A stretch of DNA of 64,000 bases from Capsulimonadaceae bacterium (GTDB lineage: Bacteria; Armatimonadota; Armatimonadia; Armatimonadales; Capsulimonadaceae), in assembly GCA_965215505.1 (NCBI GenBank), contig OZ244065.1, forward strand, positions 320,001 through 384,000, read 5' to 3'. Numbering within the stretch: position 1 is the first letter of the stretch; every line of letters starts with the position of its first letter. This document shows, piece by piece, positions 35,218 to 45,315 of the stretch. The notes beneath the pieces were generated by a model. The model made no database searches, was not told the origin of the DNA, and saw only the letters and a program-made list of their open reading frames with translations. Both the position numbers and the translations under genes were made by a program.

Positions 35218-36381
35218 CTATCGTTCCGGCAAGAGCGGGATCGTGAAGCGAAACGTACTGCCCCGGCCGGGCGCGCTCTCGACCTCGATCCGGCCGCCGT
35301 GCGCCTCGACGGCGAGTTTACAGAACGTCAGGCCGAGGCCCGTACTCATGGTGCGCCCTCCCTGGCGTGAGGCCACCTGGCCGAACTTCTCGAAGATGCG
35401 CCCGAAGGCTTCGGCGGGGATGCCCTCGCCCGTATCGCGCACGGAGAACAGCAGCGCCTCCCGCCCCGCGCCGTGGTACGCGGCGACCGTCACCGTGACC
35501 GTCACCGTCCCGCCCGAGGGGGTGAACTTGAGGGCGTTGCCCAAAAGATTGACGAGGACACGGCGCAGCTTGTTTTCGTCGCCCGGCAGCGGGGGCAGGT
35601 CGTCGGCGACCTGCTGGACGAGCCTCAGCTTCTGGCTTTCGGCAAGTGAGGCGACCTGGCTCACGGCGGAGGCCACGAGGTCGGCCGGGGACAGCGCGGC
35701 GTAATCCAGCGGCATGGAGCCGGACTCCAGCTTCTCCACATCCAGCAGGTCGTTGATCATGCCCAGAAGCACCTGCCCGCCGACGACCGCGATGTCCATC
35801 ATCTCCCGCTGGTCTTCGTTCAAGTCGCCGATCATGCCCAGCGTCTGCATCCCGGCGATCACCGACGTCAGCGGCGTGCGGAGGTCGTGGATGATCATGT
35901 GGGTCAGGTCGTCGCGCAGCTTTTCGAGTTCCTGGAGCCGGCGGTAGCTCTCCTGTAGCTCCGAGGTGAAGTGGAGTTCCAGGTCGCGGACGCGCCGCCG
36001 TTCCGTGACGTCCTCCAGGGCCAGCACCAGCAGTTCCGTGTGATTGCCGGCGCGCAGCCGGCGGGCGTTGAGCAGCATCGAGCGCCGCCCGATGGAGGGG
36101 AAGTCGTGTTCCAGCTCGTAGCCGTTGAAGACCGAGCTTTGGGGGATGATGTCTTCGAGGAGTGTCCGCAGGGCGGGGATGTCCCACTGGCCGTTACCCA
36201 GCTCGTAGATGAGGCGGCCTTCGGTTTCCTCCGGGGAGACGTGGAAGGCCTGATAGAAGGCGCGGTTGGCGCTGCGGACGCGCAGCGCGGCGTCGAGGAT
36301 CAGGAGCGGCTCGCGCACCGTGTCCACGATGTTCTGGGCGAAGTTCTGGATGTCCTCAACCAATGGCTTTCGTTGTCTCAT
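35218..36381 (-). CDS. Cytoplasmic PAS-domain sensor histidine kinase
   Basis: PAS (VDTVREPLLILD...SANRAFY); HDLRTPL; NLLGNALKF; DTGEGI; GLGL. Confidence 0.9.
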   Translation of the reverse strand: MRQRKPLVEDIQNFAQNIVDTVREPLLILDAALRVRSANRAFYQAFHVSPEETEGRLIYELGNGQWDIPALRTLLEDIIPQSSVFNGYELEHDFPSIGRRSMLLNARRLRAGNHTELLVLALEDVTERRRVRDLELHFTSELQESYRRLQELEKLRDDLTHMIIHDLRTPLTSVIAGMQTLGMIGDLNEDQREMMDIAVVGGQVLLGMINDLLDVEKLESGSMPLDYAALSPADLVASAVSQVASLAESQKLRLVQQVADDLPPLPGDENKLRRVLVNLLGNALKFTPSGGTVTVTVTVAAYHGAGREALLFSVRDTGEGIPAEAFGRIFEKFGQVASRQGGRTMSTGLGLTFCKLAVEAHGGRIEVESAPGRGSTFRFTIPLLPER

Positions 36382-36531
36382 GGACCTCCACACTCATGGC
36401 AGCCTGCCGCGTCTCACACACGACTTTATGGCTACTCCCGTGTTTTTACATTCCCCTCGTTGTACTCTGGTAAACTAGATGACGTCGGACGGGCGGCAGA
36501 GCAGAACGTGAGAATAGGAGAAAGATCAAGC

Positions 36532-36876
36532 ATGAGCGGCACGAACGGGGGAAACCCCTGGATCGAGATGGTAGAGGGCGTCCGGCGGCGCACGACGGTC
36601 AGTGGGCCGGCCATGTCCCAGATGGTCGTGACCCTGGAAGCGGGGCGGCACCTGCCGGAGCATCACCACGCGCAGGAGCAGATCGTGCATGTGGTCCGGG
36701 GGCGGCTCCGCGTCAACGTCGGCGGCGTGCCGCAGGAGGTCGGGGCGGGGGAGTCTTTGTACCTGGCCGCCGACGTGCCGCATTCGGTGGACGTGCTGGC
36801 GGAGGCCCTGGTGGTGGACACATTCAGCCCGCCGCGCGCCGACCTGCTGGCACAGGACGCGGCGGCACGGGGGTAA
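36532..36876 (+). CDS. Cupin domain protein
   Basis: PEHHHAQEQ...PHSV...DTFSPPRAD (C-terminal part of track ORF 35971-36876). Confidence 0.85.
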   Translation: MSGTNGGNPWIEMVEGVRRRTTVSGPAMSQMVVTLEAGRHLPEHHHAQEQIVHVVRGRLRVNVGGVPQEVGAGESLYLAADVPHSVDVLAEALVVDTFSPPRADLLAQDAAARG

Positions 36877-36905
36877 CAAGACAGGCGGAAAAGGAGGGCG
36901 GGGCA

Positions 36906-36931
36906 GAGGGCGGGGCTTCGGCCCCGCCCTC
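36906..36931. terminator. GC-rich hairpin between convergent genes (possible terminator)
   Basis: GAGGGCGGGGC-TTCG-GCCCCGCCCTC; no clear U-tract. Confidence 0.45.
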
Positions 36932-36940
36932 CTCGCTTGG

Positions 36941-38263
36941 CTAGGCGGCGAGCCGGCGGATGACGGTGTGGTAATCGTACTCGGCCTGGAAGAGCGCGCG
37001 GTCGCCCCAGCCGTAGCCGACGCGCAGGGCGTCGCCGACGCGGTAGAGGGAGATGGGGAAGGCGACGCGCTTGGTATCAAACAGCTCCCCCGCCCCCTGG
37101 TAGCAGCGCGGGACGTCGTCGGGCGTCAGGGCGCGCAGGCAGGACTTGACGCGCGGGGCGTCGTTCTCGTCGAAGTCCAGCCAGACAACCCAGCCCTCGT
37201 ACTGCTCCTCGATGTCCGGGTAGGCCGGGTCGTGCGTCTCGGGATGGTCGGGGTTGTTGCGCTCCAGGACGACGTGGATCAGCCCGATGTGGCCGCCGAT
37301 CTCGGGGGCGGGGAGGAAGTTGCTGCCCAGGCCGACCCGGTTCACCCGCGACCAGACCTCCGGGCCGATGGCGTTCGGCAGGCAGTCCACGAAGCCGCAC
37401 AGGCCGTAGCCGCCCAGACCGGCGGGGTCGCGGCTCTCGAAGTACGGCAGCAGCTTCGTCTCGCTCATCGAGCGCGCCCCGATCAGCACCTTGTCCCCGA
37501 GCGGGGAAGGCAGACGCACCGAGTTCTTGTAGGACTCGACGTGCAGCTCGTCTATGGCGTTGCCGACGATCCCCTTCACCCAGACGTTCTCGCCAAGCTC
37601 GGTCAGGAACAGGTCGTCCGGTGTGCCGGACTTGCCCGGCACGAACTCGATGCCGCCGAACAGGTGCTGGAGTTCGAGCTGCGCGGGCCGCTCCTCCGGG
37701 TCGAGGTAGCCGCCGTAGACGCCGACGTCGTGGATGAACAGGCCGTCCGGCAGGACGACCTTGCCCCGGTAGCCCTGGCCGGTCACGAAGAAGCCGGGCC
37801 GGCCGTCGGGCAGCGTGACGGGGGACTGGCGGACGTCCTCCATGATGACGCCCTCCGGGTTGGCGTCGTACCACAGGCTGCCGGCGCGCGGCGGACATTG
37901 CGGGGGGGATGTGCGCGGGCCGCGGATGCGCGTGAAGGGGAACCGCCGGGCCATGTCGTAGACGTTGTGCATGCCGTGCATGGCGTCTTCCGGCAGGTAG
38001 AACAGGATGTTGGTCGAGTACAGCTCGCGCGTGAACGGGTCCTTGATGCGCGACAGGCGAACCGTCACCCCGAAGGTGGCGCGGCCCGTCTCGGCGTCGG
38101 CCCAGGACTGGATGGGGCCGTTGAAGGCCGCCTCCCAGGCTTTGCCCGGCTTGCGCGCCTCGACGCCGAACTCGTGGACGGTGTGCGGGAGGACCTGGAG
38201 GTCCACCAGGGACGGCTTCGATGCATACAGGTGGGGCGAATCCAAAACGGCGCAATCGTTCAT
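36941..38263 (-). CDS. Hypothetical protein, possible divergent five-bladed beta-propeller glycosidase (GH130-like)
   Basis: AAFNG, MEDVR, KNSV, VAFPISL...VGYGWGD resemble GH130-like AFNP/EDPR/KN/VFP..YGxxD. Confidence 0.5.
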   Translation of the reverse strand: MNDCAVLDSPHLYASKPSLVDLQVLPHTVHEFGVEARKPGKAWEAAFNGPIQSWADAETGRATFGVTVRLSRIKDPFTRELYSTNILFYLPEDAMHGMHNVYDMARRFPFTRIRGPRTSPPQCPPRAGSLWYDANPEGVIMEDVRQSPVTLPDGRPGFFVTGQGYRGKVVLPDGLFIHDVGVYGGYLDPEERPAQLELQHLFGGIEFVPGKSGTPDDLFLTELGENVWVKGIVGNAIDELHVESYKNSVRLPSPLGDKVLIGARSMSETKLLPYFESRDPAGLGGYGLCGFVDCLPNAIGPEVWSRVNRVGLGSNFLPAPEIGGHIGLIHVVLERNNPDHPETHDPAYPDIEEQYEGWVVWLDFDENDAPRVKSCLRALTPDDVPRCYQGAGELFDTKRVAFPISLYRVGDALRVGYGWGDRALFQAEYDYHTVIRRLAA

Positions 38264-38336
38264 GCGGCGAACCTTCTCCCTGCGAAACGCAGGCTCTATT
38301 TCTTGCTTGGTGATGTTATCGGTTTTTCTCCGACAA

Positions 38337-39266
38337 TTAGGAGGGTGGGAAGTCCCATTGTACCACCTGTGCCGCTAGCGTCTGTAACGGGGCGAACAAG
38401 TCAGGGTGAATCAGGGCGGCCAGCATCTCCAGGCTGTCCACGAGGCGCGGGCCGGGCCGGCTGAAGTAGTCGGAGCCGTTGACGACAAAGACCCGCCTGC
38501 CCCGCACGGCGGGCAGGCCCGCGTAGCCGGGGAGCGCCTCCAAAGCGGGCATGTCCTGGGCTGACCGCTTCACGCCGAAGCCGCACTGCGCGATGACGAG
38601 GACCTGGGGGGCGAAGTCCACGATGGACTCCCAAGACACCTGCGTGGACGGTCGGTGCATCCGCCCGATGCCGTCCACGCCGCCCGCGATCTCTACGAGT
38701 TCGGGGTCCCAGTGGCCGCCGCAGAACAGCGGATCGATCCATTCCAGCAGGACGGTCCGGGGCCGCGTTCCCGCCCGGCTTGCCCGCGCGCGGACGGCCT
38801 CGATCCGCCCGCGTAGGCCCGCCAGCAGGCGGTCGGCCTCCGCCTCATGGCCCGTGGCAAGGCCGACCAGGCGGATCGTGTCCAGCACGTCGGCCAGCGA
38901 GTTCGGCTCCAGGTTGAGTACGCGCGGGCCGGGCGGGGGCAGGGAGCGGACGGCGTTCAGCACGCTGTCGTAGGAGACGGCGCAGACGTCGCAGAGCTGC
39001 TGCGTGAGGATGAGGTCAGGCTGTATCCCGGCCAGCAGGTCCCGATCAATCGTGTAGAGCGAGTGGGACTGGTCGAGCTGCCCGCGCACCGCCTCGTCTA
39101 TCGCGCCGCTGCTCAGGCCGTGCGGCAGGACACTGCGCGTGATGACCGGCTTCCGGCCCGCCTCGGGCGGGTAGTCGCACTCGTGCGTGACGGCGGCGAG
39201 GTGGTCGCCCAGCCCGAGCGCGTAAACGATCTCGGTCGCGCTCGGCAGCAGTGATACGATCTTCAT
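38337..39266 (-). CDS. Cobalamin/iron ABC transporter substrate-binding protein (BtuF-like, no signal peptide)
   Basis: MKIVSLLPSATEIVYALG, VTHECDYP, TQQLCDVCAV, FSRPGPRL. Confidence 0.85.
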   Translation of the reverse strand: MKIVSLLPSATEIVYALGLGDHLAAVTHECDYPPEAGRKPVITRSVLPHGLSSGAIDEAVRGQLDQSHSLYTIDRDLLAGIQPDLILTQQLCDVCAVSYDSVLNAVRSLPPPGPRVLNLEPNSLADVLDTIRLVGLATGHEAEADRLLAGLRGRIEAVRARASRAGTRPRTVLLEWIDPLFCGGHWDPELVEIAGGVDGIGRMHRPSTQVSWESIVDFAPQVLVIAQCGFGVKRSAQDMPALEALPGYAGLPAVRGRRVFVVNGSDYFSRPGPRLVDSLEMLAALIHPDLFAPLQTLAAQVVQWDFPPS

Positions 39267-39356
39267 GTGTCCCTCTTGTTACCGCCCGCCTCATGGCTCA
39301 AACGCGGGAGGCTCTTGTGTGACAAGAAAAGCGAAAGGCAGAACGGGATAGGAGAA

Positions 39357-39405
39357 GACGAGTGAATGAATTCACTCGCTCCCGTAAGACCTGTCCAGGG
39401 GACAG
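39357..39405. repeat. Single family B REP unit
   Basis: GACGAGTGAATGAATTCACTCGCT...CCTGTCCAGGGGACAG. Confidence 0.7.
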
Positions 39406-39431
39406 AAGAAAGACGAGAGGGGGGGTTACTG

Positions 39432-40484
39432 TCAGGCACCTTCCCCTTTGTCCGAGACGCCCGCCTCCTCGAACGTCGCCACGTCGCGCAGGACGGCGGC
39501 GGCGAGGCGGACCAGGGGCAGGGCGAAGGCCGCGCCGCTGGCCTCGCCAAGCCGCAGGCCGAGGTCGAGCAGGGGCGTCAGGCCCAGGGCGTCCAGCAGG
39601 ACCGCATGGCCCGGCTCCGGCGAGCGGTGGGCGGCGATGAAGTAGGGGCGGACGGCGGGGTCGAGCCGGTCGGCGGCCAGCGCGGCGGCCGTCGTGATGA
39701 ACCCGTCGAGCAGGATGGGGACGCGCTTGGAGGCCGCCGCCAGCATGGTGCCGGCAAGGGCCGCGATCTCCAGCCCGCCCAGCGCGGCCAGTATCTCCAG
39801 AGGGTCGGTCAGGTGCCCATGCCGGGCCAGCCCGAGGCCGACGGCTTCCCGTTTTCGCGCCAGCCCCGACTCGTCCACGCCGGTGCCGCGCCCGATGACC
39901 TCGGAAGGGGGGCAGCCCAGCAGAGCGGACGCCAGGGCCGCCGCCGTGGTCGTGTTGCCGATGCCCATCTCGCCGACGAGGGCGATGCCGACCTGTCCGG
40001 CCTCCTCAAACTGCCGACGCCCCACGCCCAATGCCGCGCGGGCCTCCTCAGCGGTCATCGCCGGCCCCTGCGTCCAGTCCGCCGTGCCGGGCCGGACCTT
40101 GGCGTGACGGACGGGCACGTCGGGCGCGAAGTCCCCGGCCACCCCGACATCGGCGACGTACAATCCAGCACCCATCTGGCCCGCCAACGTGTTGATGACC
40201 GCCCCGCCGCGCGCGAAGTTCAGCACCATTTGGGCCGTGACCTCAGACGGGTAGGCGCTGACGCCGCGCGCCGCCACGCCGTGGTCGGCGGCGTAGACGA
40301 AGATGGCGGCGGGGTCAACGTCCGGGATGGTCCTATCCTGGATGCCCGCGAGCTGCACGGTCAGTTCTTCCAGCCGGCCCAGGCTGCCGGTGGGCTTGGT
40401 CAGGCGGTCCTGTCGGGCGCGGGCGGCCAGGGCGGCGTCCTGATCGAAGGGGGGGATCGGGTCGAAGTCGGGCTGTGTCGGCAT
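39432..40484 (-). CDS. cobT: Nicotinate-nucleotide--dimethylbenzimidazole phosphoribosyltransferase
   Basis: LTKPTGSLGRLE, AADHGV, GEMGIGNTT, GGLEIA, LDGFI, LRLGEASGA. Confidence 0.95.
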   Translation of the reverse strand: MPTQPDFDPIPPFDQDAALAARARQDRLTKPTGSLGRLEELTVQLAGIQDRTIPDVDPAAIFVYAADHGVAARGVSAYPSEVTAQMVLNFARGGAVINTLAGQMGAGLYVADVGVAGDFAPDVPVRHAKVRPGTADWTQGPAMTAEEARAALGVGRRQFEEAGQVGIALVGEMGIGNTTTAAALASALLGCPPSEVIGRGTGVDESGLARKREAVGLGLARHGHLTDPLEILAALGGLEIAALAGTMLAAASKRVPILLDGFITTAAALAADRLDPAVRPYFIAAHRSPEPGHAVLLDALGLTPLLDLGLRLGEASGAAFALPLVRLAAAVLRDVATFEEAGVSDKGEGA

Positions 40485-40493
40485 GATAGTCTC

Positions 40494-41270
40494 CTAAGAG
40501 TGGGGCAATGTGGCGATCAAAAGCGTCAATGTCTCGACCAGTTGGTTCGTCGCGCCCAGGCAGTCGCCGGTCACTCCGCCGAAGCGGCGGCGGTAAAACA
40601 AACCCGTCAGCAGCAGGACGGCAAGCGCGCCGCCCAGCAGCCACAGGCCGCGCCAGACGCCAATCAGGGCAACCAGGCAGGCTGCCATCAAGGCGGTCGC
40701 CAGGACCAGCCCGCGCCGGTCGATCAGGGCGGCCAGGCCAGCGCCCAGGCCCTTCGCCCCCCGTGCGTCCGGCAGCCAGAGGGCGAGCGGCAGGGACGAC
40801 CAGCGGGCCAGGACGTGGGCGGCGAGCAGGACGGGCCAGAACGAGTGCGGGGCAAGGGCGGAGAGCGCGGCGGCTTTGAGCGTCAGCACCGCCCACAGGG
40901 CGACCGCGCCGAAGGTCCCGATGCGGCTGTCCCGCATGACTTCCAGCGCCTTCTCGCGCAAGTGCGGGCCGAGCGCGTCACTCGTGTCGGCCAGACCGTC
41001 CTCGTGGAACGCGCCCGTTGTCATCGCCGTGGCGGCGACGGTCAGGGCTGCCCCGGCAAGTGGCGGCAGGGACAACGCCGCGGACCCCAGCCAGGCCAGC
41101 GCGCCGATGCCGCCGACCACCAGGCCGACGACCGGGAAGAAGACCAGCGCCCGCCGCCGCCCGTCGGCGGGCGGGTCGTAGGCGTCGTCAGGGACGAACA
41201 GGATGGGGATGCGCGTCAAAAACTGGACTGCGATCAATGGCCCCCAGAGCCAGCCCGACCAGGCTTTCAT
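40494..41270 (-). CDS. cobS: Adenosylcobinamide-GDP ribazoletransferase
   Basis: QFLTRIP, TGAFHEDGLADTSD, MRDSRIGTFG, GGVTGDCLGA. Confidence 0.95.
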   Translation of the reverse strand: MKAWSGWLWGPLIAVQFLTRIPILFVPDDAYDPPADGRRRALVFFPVVGLVVGGIGALAWLGSAALSLPPLAGAALTVAATAMTTGAFHEDGLADTSDALGPHLREKALEVMRDSRIGTFGAVALWAVLTLKAAALSALAPHSFWPVLLAAHVLARWSSLPLALWLPDARGAKGLGAGLAALIDRRGLVLATALMAACLVALIGVWRGLWLLGGALAVLLLTGLFYRRRFGGVTGDCLGATNQLVETLTLLIATLPHS

Positions 41271-41839
41271 GCCGCCCCCGTCTGGGAGGGCTTGACGCGC
41301 AGGGGGATGCCCGCGACAAGCAGGACGACCTCGTCGGCTGCCGCCGCCGCTGCCTGGTTCGCCCGGCCCGCCACGTCCCGCCAGACGCGCCCCAGGGCCG
41401 TTCCGGGGACCATGCCCATGCCGACCTCATTAGACACGAGCAGTACGCGGGCCGGGGCCTCCTGCGCCGCCCGCAGCAGGTCGGCGACGGCGGTTTCGAC
41501 CCCGGCCTCATCCCAGACGTCCGCGTCGCAGTGGGCGGCGTCGCCCGCACGGAGCAGGTGGTTGGTCACGAAGAAGGTCAGGCAGTCAATCAGGATGACC
41601 GGTGCCTCCGACTCCCGGCGCAGGAAATCCGCCACGTCCAGAGGCTCCTCCACCGTCCGCCAGTGGGCGGGCCGGTCGGACTGATGCTTTGAAATGCGGG
41701 CGGCCATCTCGTCGTCGCCCGCCTGCGCGGTCGCGACGAACAGGACGGGACGGCCGCCGGCTTCCCGCTCGGCCATTTCCTGCGCGTGGCGGCTCTTGCC
41801 GGAGCGCGCCCCGCCTAAGATCAACGTCAATCGGCTCAT
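41267..41839 (-). CDS. cobU: Adenosylcobinamide kinase/guanylyltransferase
   Basis: LGGARSGKS, DDEMAARI..H, LIDCLT, VSNEVGMG, VAGIP. Confidence 0.95.
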   Translation of the reverse strand: MSRLTLILGGARSGKSRHAQEMAEREAGGRPVLFVATAQAGDDEMAARISKHQSDRPAHWRTVEEPLDVADFLRRESEAPVILIDCLTFFVTNHLLRAGDAAHCDADVWDEAGVETAVADLLRAAQEAPARVLLVSNEVGMGMVPGTALGRVWRDVAGRANQAAAAAADEVVLLVAGIPLRVKPSQTGAA

Positions 41840-42699
41840 CTTGCAAATCCTTCCGGGTGCAGCGCCCGCGCGACGGCCAGCAGGCCCAGCCCCAGACGCG
41901 GGCCGGGGCGGTCGGTCAGGTCGCCGGTCAGGGCGAAGACGTGACGCCGCCGGACGGCCCGAAACGATGCCGCGCCGGGGATGTCCAGCGCCTTGTGGTC
42001 CATGCCCGTGAGGATGACGTCGGGCTGGTCCCTCAGCAGCCGCTCCGGCGAGTAGGACGGGTAGCTTACGCCTGCGCGTTCGGCGACGTTGACGCCGCCG
42101 GCCAGCCGGATCAAGTCGCCGATGAAACTGCCGCCCCCCGCCGTCATCAGCGGCTTGTCCCAGACCACGACGAAGACACGCGGATGTGTCCGACCGCGCA
42201 CGGCCCGCGCGACGGCGGCCCGCGCCGCCCGCATCCGTGCCAGGGTGTCCGCCGTCGCTTGTGGCGTCCCGGCCAGCGCACCCAGGGCGGCGACATCCGC
42301 CTCGACCTGAGCGTAAGTCGCCGCCGAGGTGACGTAGACCGGCGCGCGCCACCGCGCCGCCAGCGCGTCCGCCCGCGCGGCTGGCAAGGTCTGGTCCGCC
42401 AGGATGACGAGGTCGGGCCGCAGGGCGAGTATCTTCTCCGCATTGGGCGTCACCGGCCCGCCGACGTGCGGGAGGGTCCGCGCGGCGGGCGGGAAGTCGC
42501 AGTAGACGGTGTCGCCCGCGATCCTGCTTCCGGCCCCGACCGCGTACAGTATCTCGGTCACGCTGGGTGCCAGCGAGACGATGCGCCGAGGCGGGAGCGG
42601 CAGGGAGACCAGCCGCCCAAGGTCATCCGTGACCGTCTGCGACGCGCCCGCCGGGAGTGGAAGGAGCGCGAGGCAAGCCAGAAAGAGGCAGGACCGCAT
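41836..42699 (-). CDS. Secreted cobalamin-binding periplasmic protein (BtuF-like)
   Basis: Signal peptide; TDDLGR...RIVSLAPSVTEILYAVG...YCDFP...RPGPRL. Confidence 0.85.
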   Translation of the reverse strand: MRSCLFLACLALLPLPAGASQTVTDDLGRLVSLPLPPRRIVSLAPSVTEILYAVGAGSRIAGDTVYCDFPPAARTLPHVGGPVTPNAEKILALRPDLVILADQTLPAARADALAARWRAPVYVTSAATYAQVEADVAALGALAGTPQATADTLARMRAARAAVARAVRGRTHPRVFVVVWDKPLMTAGGGSFIGDLIRLAGGVNVAERAGVSYPSYSPERLLRDQPDVILTGMDHKALDIPGAASFRAVRRRHVFALTGDLTDRPGPRLGLGLLAVARALHPEGFAR

Positions 42700-43541
42700 C
42701 AGGGCGTCCCCCTGCCGTTGAACAGCTCGTCCGTCGTCAGGTCGCCGTCCTCGTCAATGTCGCCCAGACCGAGCGGCGTGAACTGGCTGGCGTTGTAGCC
42801 GTTCATGTAGCCGAACGCCCCGGAGCGGTAGGTCGGGCGGATCGCCTTGACATGGCCGTCCAGCCAGAGGACGTTGCCCGTGCCGTTGTGCAGGCCGTGG
42901 AAGTTCGGAAAGCCGTCGCTCGGCGCATCCAGATACGGGTCGGCTTTGAAGGCGTTCTTCGCCGGGTCGAGCTGCCCGGCGTCGGCCATCTGCACCGTCC
43001 GACTGGGCGCTTGGATGGTCGCGAGCGAAACGGAGCGCGGCTCATAGTTGCCGCCCCCGATGTCCCTGTAGGGCGAGAGGTAGTCGGCGTTGTACCCGTA
43101 CCCGGTCAGGCCGAGGGCGGTGCTGACATTGGCGTCGAGTGACGGGCAGACCTGGATCTGCGAACTCCTCATGTACGGCTGGACCAGCCCCAGGCCCGCG
43201 CCCATGTGGTAGCCAGTGCCGTCCTGAGTCCCCCACCAGGTGACATAAGTGCCGGGAGCCGATCCATCCACGTTGTACGGGACGACGAGTTCGTCGGCGT
43301 CCTGCGAATACATCATGCCGGCCAGGCCGATCTGTTTGAGGTTGGAGGCACACGACGCCCGGCGGGCGTTCTCGCGCACTTTGGAGAAGACGGGGAACAG
43401 GATCGCCGCGAGAATCGCGATGATCGCGATGACGACGAGCAGTTCGATCAGGGTGAACGCTTGGGGAAGCGCCCGGCGGGGGGCCGGGGTGGAGACGAGG
43501 CGACGCCGTGTGAGGGACGCGCCGGGGACGTGGCGAGACAT
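42699..43541 (-). CDS. Type IV prepilin-like DUF1559 protein with H-X9-DG motif
   Basis: [25 protein letters not shown]...[31 protein letters not shown]. Confidence 0.9.
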
Positions 43542-43605
43542 GGGTGTTTCTTTCCGCCTGTCGCGCGCAGGCAGGAACAGCCGGAAGACTCCTGTCTTCC
43601 GGGCA

Positions 43606-43776
43606 CCTTCGGCTGGCATTCTGGCTGAGCGGCCCGCGTCCCGAGGGACGGAGCCGCATCACAGTTGCGGGACAGCGCCGGAATAGCCTTGGCACTGAAA
43701 CGAGTCAACGCTTCAGCGAGCAAGGCGCACCGGACTTCCCCATTTAAGCGCCGCGTTGACCGCGACGCACCGAGGG
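43606..43776 (-). ncRNA. Cobalamin riboswitch
   Basis: Minus strand GGTGC...TAAATGGGGAAGTCCGGTG...ATTCCGGCGCTGTCCCGCAACTGTGA...AGCCAGAATGCC (B12 box), upstream of cob genes. Confidence 0.9.
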
Positions 43777-43804
43777 TTGGGGCACGATGTAGTTTTGAAG
43801 TGTG

Positions 43805-43834
43805 AGTATAGCAGGGTGGGGCGGGGGAAGTCAA
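43805..43834 (-). promoter_or_regulatory. sigma70 promoter of the riboswitch/cob operon
   Basis: TTGACT-18 nt-TATACT with extended TG. Confidence 0.7.
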
Positions 43835-44076
43835 GGGGAACCCACCCCGGCGCGAGCGCCGACCCGCCCGAAACGGGAGGGTGGGGTGAGAAGGTTGTTG
43901 GGGGGGTAGCGGGATGAGTGGGGGGCTAGGGGGTTAAGGGGTGTTCCGAAGGGAGGTGGCTGCCCGCGCCCCTTAACAGGACAGCCGCCCACTCATCCCG
44001 CCAAACCTCCCGATCACCCTCCCAGTCCACCTTCCCGTTTCGGGCGGGTCGGCGCTCGCGTCGGGGTGGGTTCCCC
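43835..44076. mobile_element. MITE/REPIN-like element with ~50-bp terminal inverted repeats
   Basis: GGGGAACCCACCCCGGCGCGAGCGCCGACCCGCCCGAAACGGGAGGGTGG is inverted at 44027-44076 with 2 mismatches; inner inverted repeat 43909-43927/43983-44001. Confidence 0.65.
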
Positions 44077-45315
44077 CGCCGCCTCGCCCGCCGCCTCGCC
44101 CGCCGCCCACCCGGTACTCCAGGCCGCCTGCAAGTTGTAGCCGCCGACCGGCCCGGCGATGTCCAGCACCTCGCCGCACAGATACAAGCCTTCCACCCGG
44201 CGTGACCGCATCGTGCCCGCCTCCACCTCGTCCAGCGCGACGCCGCCCGCGACCACCTCGCCGCGCTCCAAAGGGACGTGGCGGACCGTGCCGAGCGGCC
44301 AGGCTTTCAGGGTGGAAACCAGCTTGTTCAGCGCCTTCGCGGTCAGGTACGCCCCGCGCGTCTCGGCGGGCACGTCGGCGGCGGCCAGCAGCGGCTCCAA
44401 GAGCCGTGCGGGGACGAACGGGGCGGCCAGGGCACCGACCGTCTTGCGCGGGTTGTCTTTTGCCTGCCGCCGCAGCTCGGCTTGAAGCTCCTCCCAGGTC
44501 AGGCCCGGCGCGAGGTCCGCCTCCACCGCGCTGACCGCCTCCCGCTCGGCCACCTCGCGCGAGACGCCCAGGGCGGTCGGGCCGGAGACGCCCTTGTGGG
44601 TGAACAGCAGGTCGCCCTGCCAGCGCATGAACTCCTTGCCGCCCCCGCCTGCCCGCGCCCGCAGCACGGTGTCGCGCAGGGCCACGCCCGACCACTGCGG
44701 GGCGGCGTCGGCGAGGTACAGGGGAGCCAGTGCGGCCCGCAGCGGCACGACCGTGTGCCCGAGCGACGTCAGCCACGGCCAGCCGTCCCCGGTCGTCCCG
44801 GTGGCGGGGTACGACGAGCCGCCGGTAGACACGATGACGCGCGAGGCCGGCAGCGTCTCCGCCCCGACCTGCACCGCCCGCATCCGGCCCCCTTGGGCCA
44901 CCAGCCCGGTGACGGACGCCCCGTAGCGGATGCTTACACCCGCCTCCTCGACGTGGCGCGTCAGCAATGCGACGACATCCTTGGCGTTTGCCGGCTCGAC
45001 CGGGAAGATGCGCCCGTCGGGCCGCACATAAGTCTCCATGCCCCGGTCGTGCAGGATACGCAGGAAGTCCTGGTTGGTGAACTTGTAAAACGAGGGCTTC
45101 AGGAACCGCGCCTCATTGGGCCGGAACTTCGCCCGCACGTCCTCCATCGGCCCGTCGTGGGTGAGGTTGCACTTGCCGCCGCCGGAGATGAGTATCTTCA
45201 TCCCCAGCCGGTCGTTCTTCTCCAGCAGCGTGACGCGCGCCCCGCACTCGGCGGCCCGCCGGGCGGCCAGCATCCCTGCCGCGCCGCCGCCGATGACAAT
45301 TACTTCCTTTGTCAT
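44014..45315 (-). CDS. HI0933/BaiN-family flavoprotein
   Basis: GGGAAG, KILISGGGKCNLT, TGGSSYPATGTTGDG, LLFTHKGVSGP, GEVLDIAGPVGGYNLQAAWSTG. Confidence 0.92.
   Translation of the reverse strand: MTKEVIVIGGGAAGMLAARRAAECGARVTLLEKNDRLGMKILISGGGKCNLTHDGPMEDVRAKFRPNEARFLKPSFYKFTNQDFLRILHDRGMETYVRPDGRIFPVEPANAKDVVALLTRHVEEAGVSIRYGASVTGLVAQGGRMRAVQVGAETLPASRVIVSTGGSSYPATGTTGDGWPWLTSLGHTVVPLRAALAPLYLADAAPQWSGVALRDTVLRARAGGGGKEFMRWQGDLLFTHKGVSGPTALGVSREVAEREAVSAVEADLAPGLTWEELQAELRRQAKDNPRKTVGALAAPFVPARLLEPLLAAADVPAETRGAYLTAKALNKLVSTLKAWPLGTVRHVPLERGEVVAGGVALDEVEAGTMRSRRVEGLYLCGEVLDIAGPVGGYNLQAAWSTGWAAGEAAGEAAGEPTPTRAPTRPKREGGLGG

Follow-up and report, generated by a model that had tools for sequence, protein, structure and literature searches.

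In Escherichia coli and Salmonella, the uptake of vitamin B12 is governed by a riboswitch in the leader of btuB and runs through BtuB-TonB-ExbBD, BtuF and BtuCD, and cobU, cobS and cobT often belong to the same regulon. The locus described here lies in a 64,000-nucleotide stretch of the genome of a Capsulimonadaceae bacterium of the phylum Armatimonadota (assembly GCA_965215505.1, contig OZ244065.1, positions 320,001 to 384,000; the whole of this stretch is called the window), in which a cobalamin riboswitch precedes a gene for a DUF1559 / H-X9-DG prepilin-type protein (the window pilin), followed by genes for a secreted BtuF-like protein, CobU, CobS and CobT. The arrangement resembles that of E. 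coli and Salmonella in that an adenosylcobalamin riboswitch stands at the first envelope gene, a BtuF-type protein comes next and cobU, cobS and cobT are present; it differs in that the first gene belongs to the pilin class instead of encoding a 22-strand TonB-dependent barrel, and btuCD is unlinked. The layout of E. coli and Salmonella is also seen in the phylum. Judging from its gene content and leader, and with our confidence evenly divided, we propose that the locus could be an operon for corrinoid acquisition and salvage, switched off by adenosylcobalamin, whose first gene encodes an envelope protein of the pilin class.

Other described systems share single features with this locus. In natural competence, a pilin fibre passing through a secretin brings DNA into the periplasm (PilA4 of Thermus thermophilus, ComP of Neisseria, and ComGC). 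PilA4 and ComP are the best structural matches of the window pilin, but their ligand is DNA and the competence pilins have 110-160 residues, whereas the protein here has 280 amino acids (aa) and a larger globular part with the H-X9-DG motif. The type II secretion pseudopilins GspG, EpsG and PulG have the prepilin N-terminus and the fold in common with the window pilin, which, however, falls far under the GspG cut-off (TIGR01710, 30.1 bits against 88.85, over the N-terminal residues 28-82 only) and so is not assigned to GspG, has no gsp operon around it and stands under the control of a vitamin riboswitch. BtuG and BtuH of Bacteroides are surface lipoproteins that capture B12 and, like the protein proposed here, would count as extra B12-regulated envelope proteins aiding capture outside the inner membrane; they are of another fold class, though, and act with BtuB and not in its place. 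Direct control of a pilin gene by a riboswitch is known from Clostridioides difficile, where a cyclic di-GMP riboswitch precedes pilA1, a type IV pilin gene, but there a second messenger is sensed, and the pilus is used for aggregation and motility and not for the uptake of the sensed molecule.

The nearest published idea that we found concerns the Planctomycetes, a DUF1559-rich phylum, in which pili-like fibres emerging from outer-membrane craters bind dextran and uptake via the fibres has been proposed (Boedeker et al. 2017, PMC5394234); no gene is assigned to these fibres, however, what they bind is a polysaccharide, and a riboswitch plays no part. Full-text searches gave no paper in which cobalamin or the cobalamin riboswitch is connected with DUF1559, with prepilins or with pseudopilins (supplements and subscription journals lay outside their scope), and the literature searches returned neither a record of vitamin uptake by a pilin fibre nor a ligand or role of DUF1559 in print. 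New here are the order-wide count of the riboswitch-pilin pairing (28 of 28 loci), the test of the riboswitch-led pilins as a clade against paralogues, the tally of pilin versus receptor, a second copy of the whole operon, and a divergent copy with exchanged partners.

The riboswitch, its leader and the window pilin

The elements that the first-pass annotation of the window had listed, namely a promoter, a B12 riboswitch, a DUF1559/H-X9-DG prepilin gene, a BtuF-like gene, cobU, cobS, cobT and a second BtuF-like gene, were all recovered on the minus strand, and its coordinates proved exact (Table 1). Its description of overlapping or near-abutting stops and starts held as well: the pilin and BtuF-like genes overlap by one base (TGATG), the junctions of the BtuF-like gene with cobU and of cobU with cobS both read ATGA, and 9 bases separate cobS from cobT. 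The gap between cobT and the second BtuF-like gene measures 165 bases. A Pfam scan of the six operon proteins found no plug or barrel domain of a TonB-dependent receptor and no FecCD permease, in agreement with the annotated absence of btuB and btuCD from the operon. The secreted BtuF-like protein scored 95.1 bits against the BtuF equivalog NF002894, the cut-off of which is 234, and cleared the cut-off of Peripla_BP_2; it is therefore named BtuF-like, and its ligand is read from the context. The second BtuF-like protein lacks a signal peptide, its chain opening with the domain itself, and is thus probably cytoplasmic.

Table 1. Features of the riboswitch-led operon and of the gene behind it (positions in the window)
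Feature	Position	Strand	Evidence
Sigma-70-like promoter, TTGACT-18-TATACT, with TG before the -10 box	43805..43834	-	Sequence pattern scan
Cobalamin riboswitch aptamer, RF00174	43594..43789	-	Covariance-model match
Hairpin 1, CCGGAAGAC-AGGA-GTCTTCCGG, with pyrimidine/U-rich tail, terminator-like	43574..43602 (stem-loop 43602-43581)	-	Leader sequence and alignment
Hairpin 2, CCTGCCTG...CAGGCGG, running into the Shine-Dalgarno-like GGAAAGA	43549..43575 (hairpin 43575-43554)	-	Leader sequence and alignment
DUF1559 / H-X9-DG prepilin-type protein, 280 aa, riboswitch-led clade	42699..43541	-	PF07963, PF07596, TIGR04294
Secreted BtuF-like substrate-binding protein (Peripla_BP_2), 287 aa	41836..42699	-	PF01497, 103.7 bits (cut-off 27.5); N-terminal signal-like segment
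cobU, adenosylcobinamide kinase / guanylyltransferase	41267..41839	-	NF004469, 193.9 bits (equivalog cut-off 161)
cobS, adenosylcobinamide-GDP ribazoletransferase	40494..41270	-	TIGR00317, 118.6 bits (equivalog cut-off 110)
cobT, nicotinate-nucleotide:dimethylbenzimidazole phosphoribosyltransferase	39432..40484	-	TIGR03160, 426.1 bits (equivalog cut-off 319.3)
Second BtuF-like gene, without signal peptide	38337..39266	-	PF01497, 70.9 bits
440-aa protein of no known family	36941..38263	-	Open reading frame; orthologues in relatives

The promoter is the sole sigma-70-like site in the region 36300-44100 (shuffled sequences gave a mean of 0.5), and the RF00174 match begins 15 bases downstream of it, covering the full model (1-189) at 46 bits and E 2.3e-08, above the gathering cut-off of 31.5. 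According to a genome-wide scan this is the only RF00174 match in the complete genome of 6,177,771 bases. The start of the pilin gene was set by a Shine-Dalgarno-like site (GGAAAGA), 8 bases before the ATG, and by alignment with relatives; a longer frame, from 43619, would begin inside the aptamer.

The leader RNA (folding z = -4.29) is predicted to form two hairpins. Hairpin 1 is built from the last nine bases of the RF00174 match and the next thirteen, and in 16 aligned leaders of the same genus its 7-pair helix is preserved despite two-sided changes (for 9 of the 15 predicted leader pairs, one or more of the 16 leaders have both bases changed), while its tail reads TTTCC or TTTTTT in relatives and is weaker in the window (CTGTTCC). 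Because of the covarying helix and the T-rich tail of the relatives, hairpin 1 looks like a B12-dependent terminator, and it would fit B12-dependent regulation of the pilin gene itself. The columns of hairpin 2 are identical in 15-16 of the 16 leaders, a near-invariance that neither supports nor opposes pairing. Within the window's own order the RF00174 scores amount to only 24-52 bits (loci L082-L110 and the window), compared to about 100 bits elsewhere in the phylum, and the window aptamer departs from the model by an insertion of ~40 bases in one loop and by a shortened peripheral region (17 bases against 56); the aptamer of this order may be a lineage-specific variant. The genome's single thiamine pyrophosphate riboswitch has no pilin after its first frame, which we take to be ThiC.

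The window pilin carries a prepilin motif at residues 27-49 (PF07963, 30.4 bits, cut-off 21.2; TIGR02532, 31 bits, cut-off 16.3) and an H-X9-DG motif at residues 214-234 (TIGR04294, 22.3 bits, cut-off 19); the DUF1559 profile PF07596 gives 44.2 bits against a cut-off of 23.3 and covers only positions 2-33 of its 268. In an alignment of 41 sequences, F29, E33, H218, D228, G229 and H230 are invariant, as are C64 and C132, and both the cysteines and the residues of the H-X9-DG-H motif are family-wide and not specific to a clade. The AlphaFold model, computed with a 41-row alignment (pLDDT 83.9, pTM 0.78), consists of a helix at residues 31-81 and a mostly beta globular part. When it was compared with known structures by VIA-align, 16 of the 17 best rows were pilins or pseudopilins (Z 3.1-5.7), among them PilA4 (6xxd; Z 5.7 over 124 residues), ComP (5hz7; 4.6), EpsG (4lw9; 4.5), PilV (4.5) and PulG (5wda; 3.5). 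From these fold matches, and from the long helix on a beta globular domain, we regard the protein as a member of the pilin class with an enlarged head: it has the cleavage/methylation motif and hydrophobic helix of type IV pilins and pseudopilins and, in the predicted model, their long helix packed on a beta-sheet domain.

Alternatively, the window pilin might stay unassembled, held in the inner membrane by its N-terminal helix, and work in the periplasm by binding corrinoid at this tether or by offering BtuF and the permease a docking site. Such a helper would suit the overlap of the pilin stop with the BtuF-like start, the frequent pilin-BtuF order, the lack of assembly genes in the operon and the Pfam name of the DUF1559 family, SBP_bac_10. 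The pilin fold and the conservation of the motif for prepilin cleavage, however, favour processing and assembly, and a periplasmic helper would not replace an outer-membrane receptor; we consider this role distinctly unlikely.

Recurrence of the pairing and a branch of DUF1559

An RF00174 match was found in 38 of the 41 genomes of the window's order (40 relatives in two families and the window genome), and in all 28 usable loci a prepilin frame of about 250-300 aa lies 9-223 bases past the aptamer (30 loci were fetched, two of which were too short; 27 of the pilins were flagged by pattern and one, L098 with FTLIEF, by eye). In the rest of the phylum, for which 150 further genomes were sampled, 147 of 151 genomes had a match. 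Outside the window's order, 144 riboswitch loci from 108 genomes were classified, of which 72 lead a pilin, 23 a TonB-dependent receptor (Plug and/or barrel domains), 15 BtuF, ATP-binding cassette (ABC) or FecCD genes and 33 other genes (including ribonucleotide reductases, CobU/CobT, CbiB and dockerin proteins), with one locus unclassifiable. In other families of Armatimonadota the B12 riboswitch precedes genes for ribonucleotide reductases, either of class I (Ribonuc_red_lgC) or of class III (NRDD) (L275, L278-L280, L239, L282), a known pattern in which B12-independent isozymes are repressed.

In Planctomycetota, a pilin follows the riboswitch in 4 of the 30 best loci, and one more pilin lies between two tandem riboswitches; in three further genomes a pilin follows in 3 of 7 loci, two of the three loci being in a Victivallales genome. 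Among full-length relatives from named genomes, 4 of 20 have a B12-class riboswitch upstream (one of the AdoCbl-II type), and these belong to Planctomycetales, Planctomycetota, Verrucomicrobiales and Lentisphaeria. The closest metagenome loci carry RF00174 upstream on the same strand in 10 of 16 cases, immediately upstream in 7, and two of the six loci without it have almost no upstream DNA. One metagenome locus (L358) holds the whole operon with its genes in the same sequence, with riboswitch, pilin (63% identity), BtuF (75%), CobU (75%), CobS (78%) and CobT (70%). The pairing that had first been noticed in a single genome thus recurs throughout the order, in half of the classified phylum loci and in lineages of the Planctomycetota-Verrucomicrobiota-Chlamydiota (PVC) type, and is not unique to the window genome.

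The window genome contains about 57 copies of DUF1559, only one of which carries its single B12 riboswitch. A quick, unrooted tree was computed by maximum likelihood from 96 proteins, namely the window pilin and 42 further riboswitch-led pilins, 52 other copies of the window genome, and one non-riboswitch neighbour of a relative. In it, the riboswitch-led pilins formed one side of a single branch (43 against 53 rows, SH-aLRT 98) and none of 500 label shuffles was as clustered; the comparison copies came from the window genome only, and three paralogues without the N-terminal pattern, as well as several riboswitch-led pilins missed by the start-codon filter, were left out. The tree supports a dedicated branch of DUF1559, spanning several phyla, for the riboswitch-led pilins. 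Around the other copies of the window genome, 33 of which were surveyed (40 were fetched, and seven had no pilin frame under the open reading frame filter), the neighbourhoods are mixed, with LacI regulators, glycoside hydrolases, FG-GAP/ASPIC, TPR, MFS, BT1, NicO and amino-acid permease genes, and among these neighbours no B12 genes and no general rule were found. Individual non-riboswitch copies (L325, L327, L333, L339) stand beside genes for cofactors or for the transport of small molecules, namely a BT1 folate/biopterin-type transporter, PTPS with GTP cyclohydrolase I, two NicO nickel/cobalt transporters, and an amino-acid permease.

Which genes follow the pilin was tallied for 38 next genes of at least 150 aa, out of 55 pilin loci. 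Peripla_BP_2 (BtuF-type) proteins account for 15 of them and proteins without a family for 12; the others are CobT (3), an ABC ATPase (1), BtuR (1), a second DUF1559 protein (2), GDSL esterases (2), a CoA transferase (1) and an amidohydrolase (1). A pilin followed by BtuF is the commonest order in the phylum, as it is in the window. This tally bears on whether the pilin has a transport role at all, because it might be B12-regulated for surface remodelling or for adhesion to B12 producers and merely share its leader with the salvage genes. B12 riboswitches do control genes that do not handle B12, such as the class I and III ribonucleotide reductases of the phylum, and the very mixed neighbourhoods of the other DUF1559 copies would agree with such a role; but the riboswitch-led pilins make up a dedicated clade that spans phyla, most of the next genes assigned to a family are BtuF-type, CobT, ABC ATPase or BtuR (20 of 26, the other 6 not being B12 genes), and the pilin seldom shares a genome with a riboswitch-led receptor. 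We regard the absence of any transport role as very improbable.

In the window's own genus, genes for secreted PEP-CTERM proteins come after the pilin, and behind them stand the signal-less BtuF-like gene and the gene for the 440-aa protein. Orthologues of the signal-less BtuF-like gene occur in riboswitch-led stretches of at least two genomes of the genus and of one genome of the order's second family (L184, L185, L192). A tblastn search of the window genome gave no homologue of the PEP-CTERM partner proteins.

The pilin could also be a type II secretion pseudopilin working as a piston that pushes out B12-capturing proteins (in relatives those with PEP-CTERM signals, in the window perhaps the BtuF-like protein), and there would be no inward transport of corrinoids. 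Type II pseudopilins, EpsG and PulG, are indeed among the fold matches, the next genes in many relatives encode secreted PEP-CTERM proteins of no known family, and the genome has secretin matches and many GspE-type ATPases. The window genome, however, has no homologue of the PEP-CTERM partners, the partner in 15 of the 38 loci is an ordinary periplasmic BtuF-type protein for which no export is needed, and the rarity of riboswitch-led TonB receptors alongside the pilin would stay unexplained; export in place of import therefore seems unlikely to us.

Two secreted families trail the riboswitch-led pilin in many relatives (L184:1063-1983, L185:1102-2124, L194:5572-7173, L199:4953-7205; L190:1182-1754, L198:6432-6989, L192:2060-2710). 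Several of their members end in a PEP-CTERM signal, and they sometimes stand directly behind the riboswitch (L126, L154, L160). Pfam and NCBIfam show nothing in them except the sorting signal.

Pilin, receptor and a candidate route for corrinoids

Counted by genome, the riboswitch-led genes of all 108 genomes include a pilin only in 63, a TonB receptor only in 20, both in 3 and neither in 22; in the 95 genomes in which every listed match was classified, the corresponding numbers are 58, 16, 1 and 20. If pilin and receptor were independent, the marginal frequencies in the 108 genomes would give about 14 genomes with both, against the 3 observed, a contrast to be read as a pattern and not as a statistical test because the receptor type is concentrated in few families and relatedness inflates it. 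The tally bears out the early suggestion that the pilin sits in the place usually held by btuB, since other genomes of the phylum have a riboswitch-led TonB receptor there. One genome of the window's own family (G089) has riboswitch-led TonB receptor and riboswitch-led ExbB/ExbD loci (L227 and L254) and no riboswitch-led pilin among its two matches; here the one system seems to have been exchanged naturally for the other inside a single family.

The window genome encodes MetH, the B12-dependent methionine synthase, with all five domains, and a second frame with a B12-binding domain. No match to CbiC was found in the genome (completeness 96%), so that the organism is unlikely to build the corrin ring itself and likely to import corrinoids; on this gene content it probably needs imported corrinoid. 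The absence of btuB and btuCD applies to the operon, whereas elsewhere in the genome there are two TonB-receptor-like genes with CarboxypepD_reg heads (C1 at 3.45 Mb and 4.64 Mb, one of them beside ExbB and two ExbD) and a single FecCD permease, at 2.68 Mb and without a riboswitch. As to machinery of the pilus or secretion type, the scans gave 6 secretin matches, of which 5 were strong and 1 was weak, together with 7 GspE/PilB-type ATPases of full length and some shorter, PilT-like ones.

The pilin probably takes part in an undescribed way of B12 acquisition, as is suggested by its partners in the operon and by the recurrence of the pairing in several phyla, for the most part in genomes without a usual outer-membrane B12 receptor under riboswitch control. 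When B12 is scarce, the riboswitch would permit transcription, and probably translation too. The prepilin would then be cut and assembled by a type II secretion or type IV pilus machine into a short or retractile fibre through a secretin, and this fibre, alone or with partner proteins, would move corrinoid from the surface to the periplasm, the step that is carried out by BtuB-TonB elsewhere. The co-translated BtuF-like protein would hand the corrinoid to the single FecCD-type permease, and CobU, CobS and CobT would finish the lower ligand. Within this scheme, we infer the assembly of the fibre, its contact with corrinoid, and the import. Of the readings weighed, the one with most support, to which we give about even odds, has the clade as an envelope part of corrinoid acquisition, acting ahead of BtuF and doing the work of BtuB, most likely as a fibre subunit of a type IV pilus or type II secretion machine. 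A broader version, which we hold tentatively and find possible but on balance doubtful, is that pseudopilins of a dedicated DUF1559 clade build a retractile fibre, or sit at its tip, and that this fibre takes corrinoids into the periplasm by way of a secretin and independently of TonB, replacing BtuB in much of Armatimonadota and in parts of the PVC phyla; by extension, the dozens of DUF1559 copies in a genome would be interchangeable, substrate-specific heads of one nutrient-uptake machine.

Several observations weigh against a role of the pilin in corrinoid import. Besides the relatedness that inflates the contrast between pilin and receptor, a riboswitch-led pilin and a riboswitch-led receptor occur together in three genomes and are both missing from 22, and 53 lower-scoring riboswitch matches lie outside the phylum locus counts. 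The two TonB-receptor-like proteins of the window genome, which are without riboswitch control, might carry B12 across the outer membrane instead; the sole FecCD permease comes with a binding protein of its own, and a scan of nine open reading frames around it gave no ABC ATPase. A MetE-like frame of 366 codons is present, so B12 may not be essential to the organism.

The protein itself also provides points on this side. A Foldseek search of the Protein Data Bank (PDB) with the pilin model returned nothing at E <= 0.001, and no corrinoid-binding fold or pocket was detected, none being among the listed VIA-align rows, the Z scores of which are low. Most of the conserved residues are family-wide. 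In the tree the window pilin is a lone long branch (0.83) outside the group of its own genus, with 39-44% identity to its congeners, and it has G216 and L217 where 93-95% of the clade have F and R; in place of the clade-typical F216, R217, F185 and A222 it shows G216, L217, M185 and G222, while P88, G118, G147 and Y150 of the clade are retained. This divergence fits the different make-up of the operon, in which the secreted BtuF-like gene and cobU, cobS and cobT take the place of the PEP-CTERM genes.

Neighbouring genes and the meaning for DUF1559

The 440-aa protein encoded behind the second BtuF-like gene has orthologues of 69-76% identity in four relatives, directly after the BtuF-like orthologue in two relatives of the same genus and elsewhere within the riboswitch-led stretch in the other two, and its gene is probably the tail of the operon. 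Pfam and NCBIfam give no family for it, and its AlphaFold model (pLDDT 60.5) is too poor for a structure search. The look-alikes in the atlas are DUF1861 / GH130-like beta-propellers (0.94-0.95) and serve as leads only. A paralogue lies in the same genome (C1:157616-158872, plus strand). The protein may perhaps be a novel corrinoid-handling enzyme.

Several Armatimonadota genomes have a gene for a secreted protein in first or second place behind the riboswitch (L120, L317, L136, L143, L144). That of L120 has a dockerin-type module and weak beta-propeller matches (DUF5074, YNCE), and that of L317 a dockerin and CarboxypepD_reg; the N-termini of L136, L143 and L144 resemble that of L120 by eye only, and a scan of L144 gave no family. 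Secreted proteins of the L120 type may be another kind of B12-regulated surface protein. A family of 118-137 aa proteins, starting with MxEVTxFxGxLxxGD, occurs right after the pilin (L200:6732-7088, a member without a family) and right after the riboswitch (L140, first open reading frame). Apart from these, the window genome encodes a UvrD-type helicase of 1071 aa with an intein (Intein_splicing and Hint_2, residues 317-575; L113:51-3266, C1:3448050-3451265, minus strand).

Among protein families without an assigned function, DUF1559 is one of the largest in Planctomycetota, Verrucomicrobiota and Armatimonadota. Planctopirus limnophila has 68 copies, two of them essential, and the paper that reports them calls their function unknown (PMC10632474). 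Because a riboswitch names its ligand, a clade under B12 control gives DUF1559 a concrete and cheap test, namely B12 binding or import, and the dedicated clade described above thus supplies the ligand hypothesis that the first-pass annotation had put forward for the family. If the proposed role is true, it would explain how a vitamin of 1.3 kDa crosses the outer membrane without a B12-regulated BtuB, and the uses of the type IV pilus machinery would widen from DNA to small nutrients.

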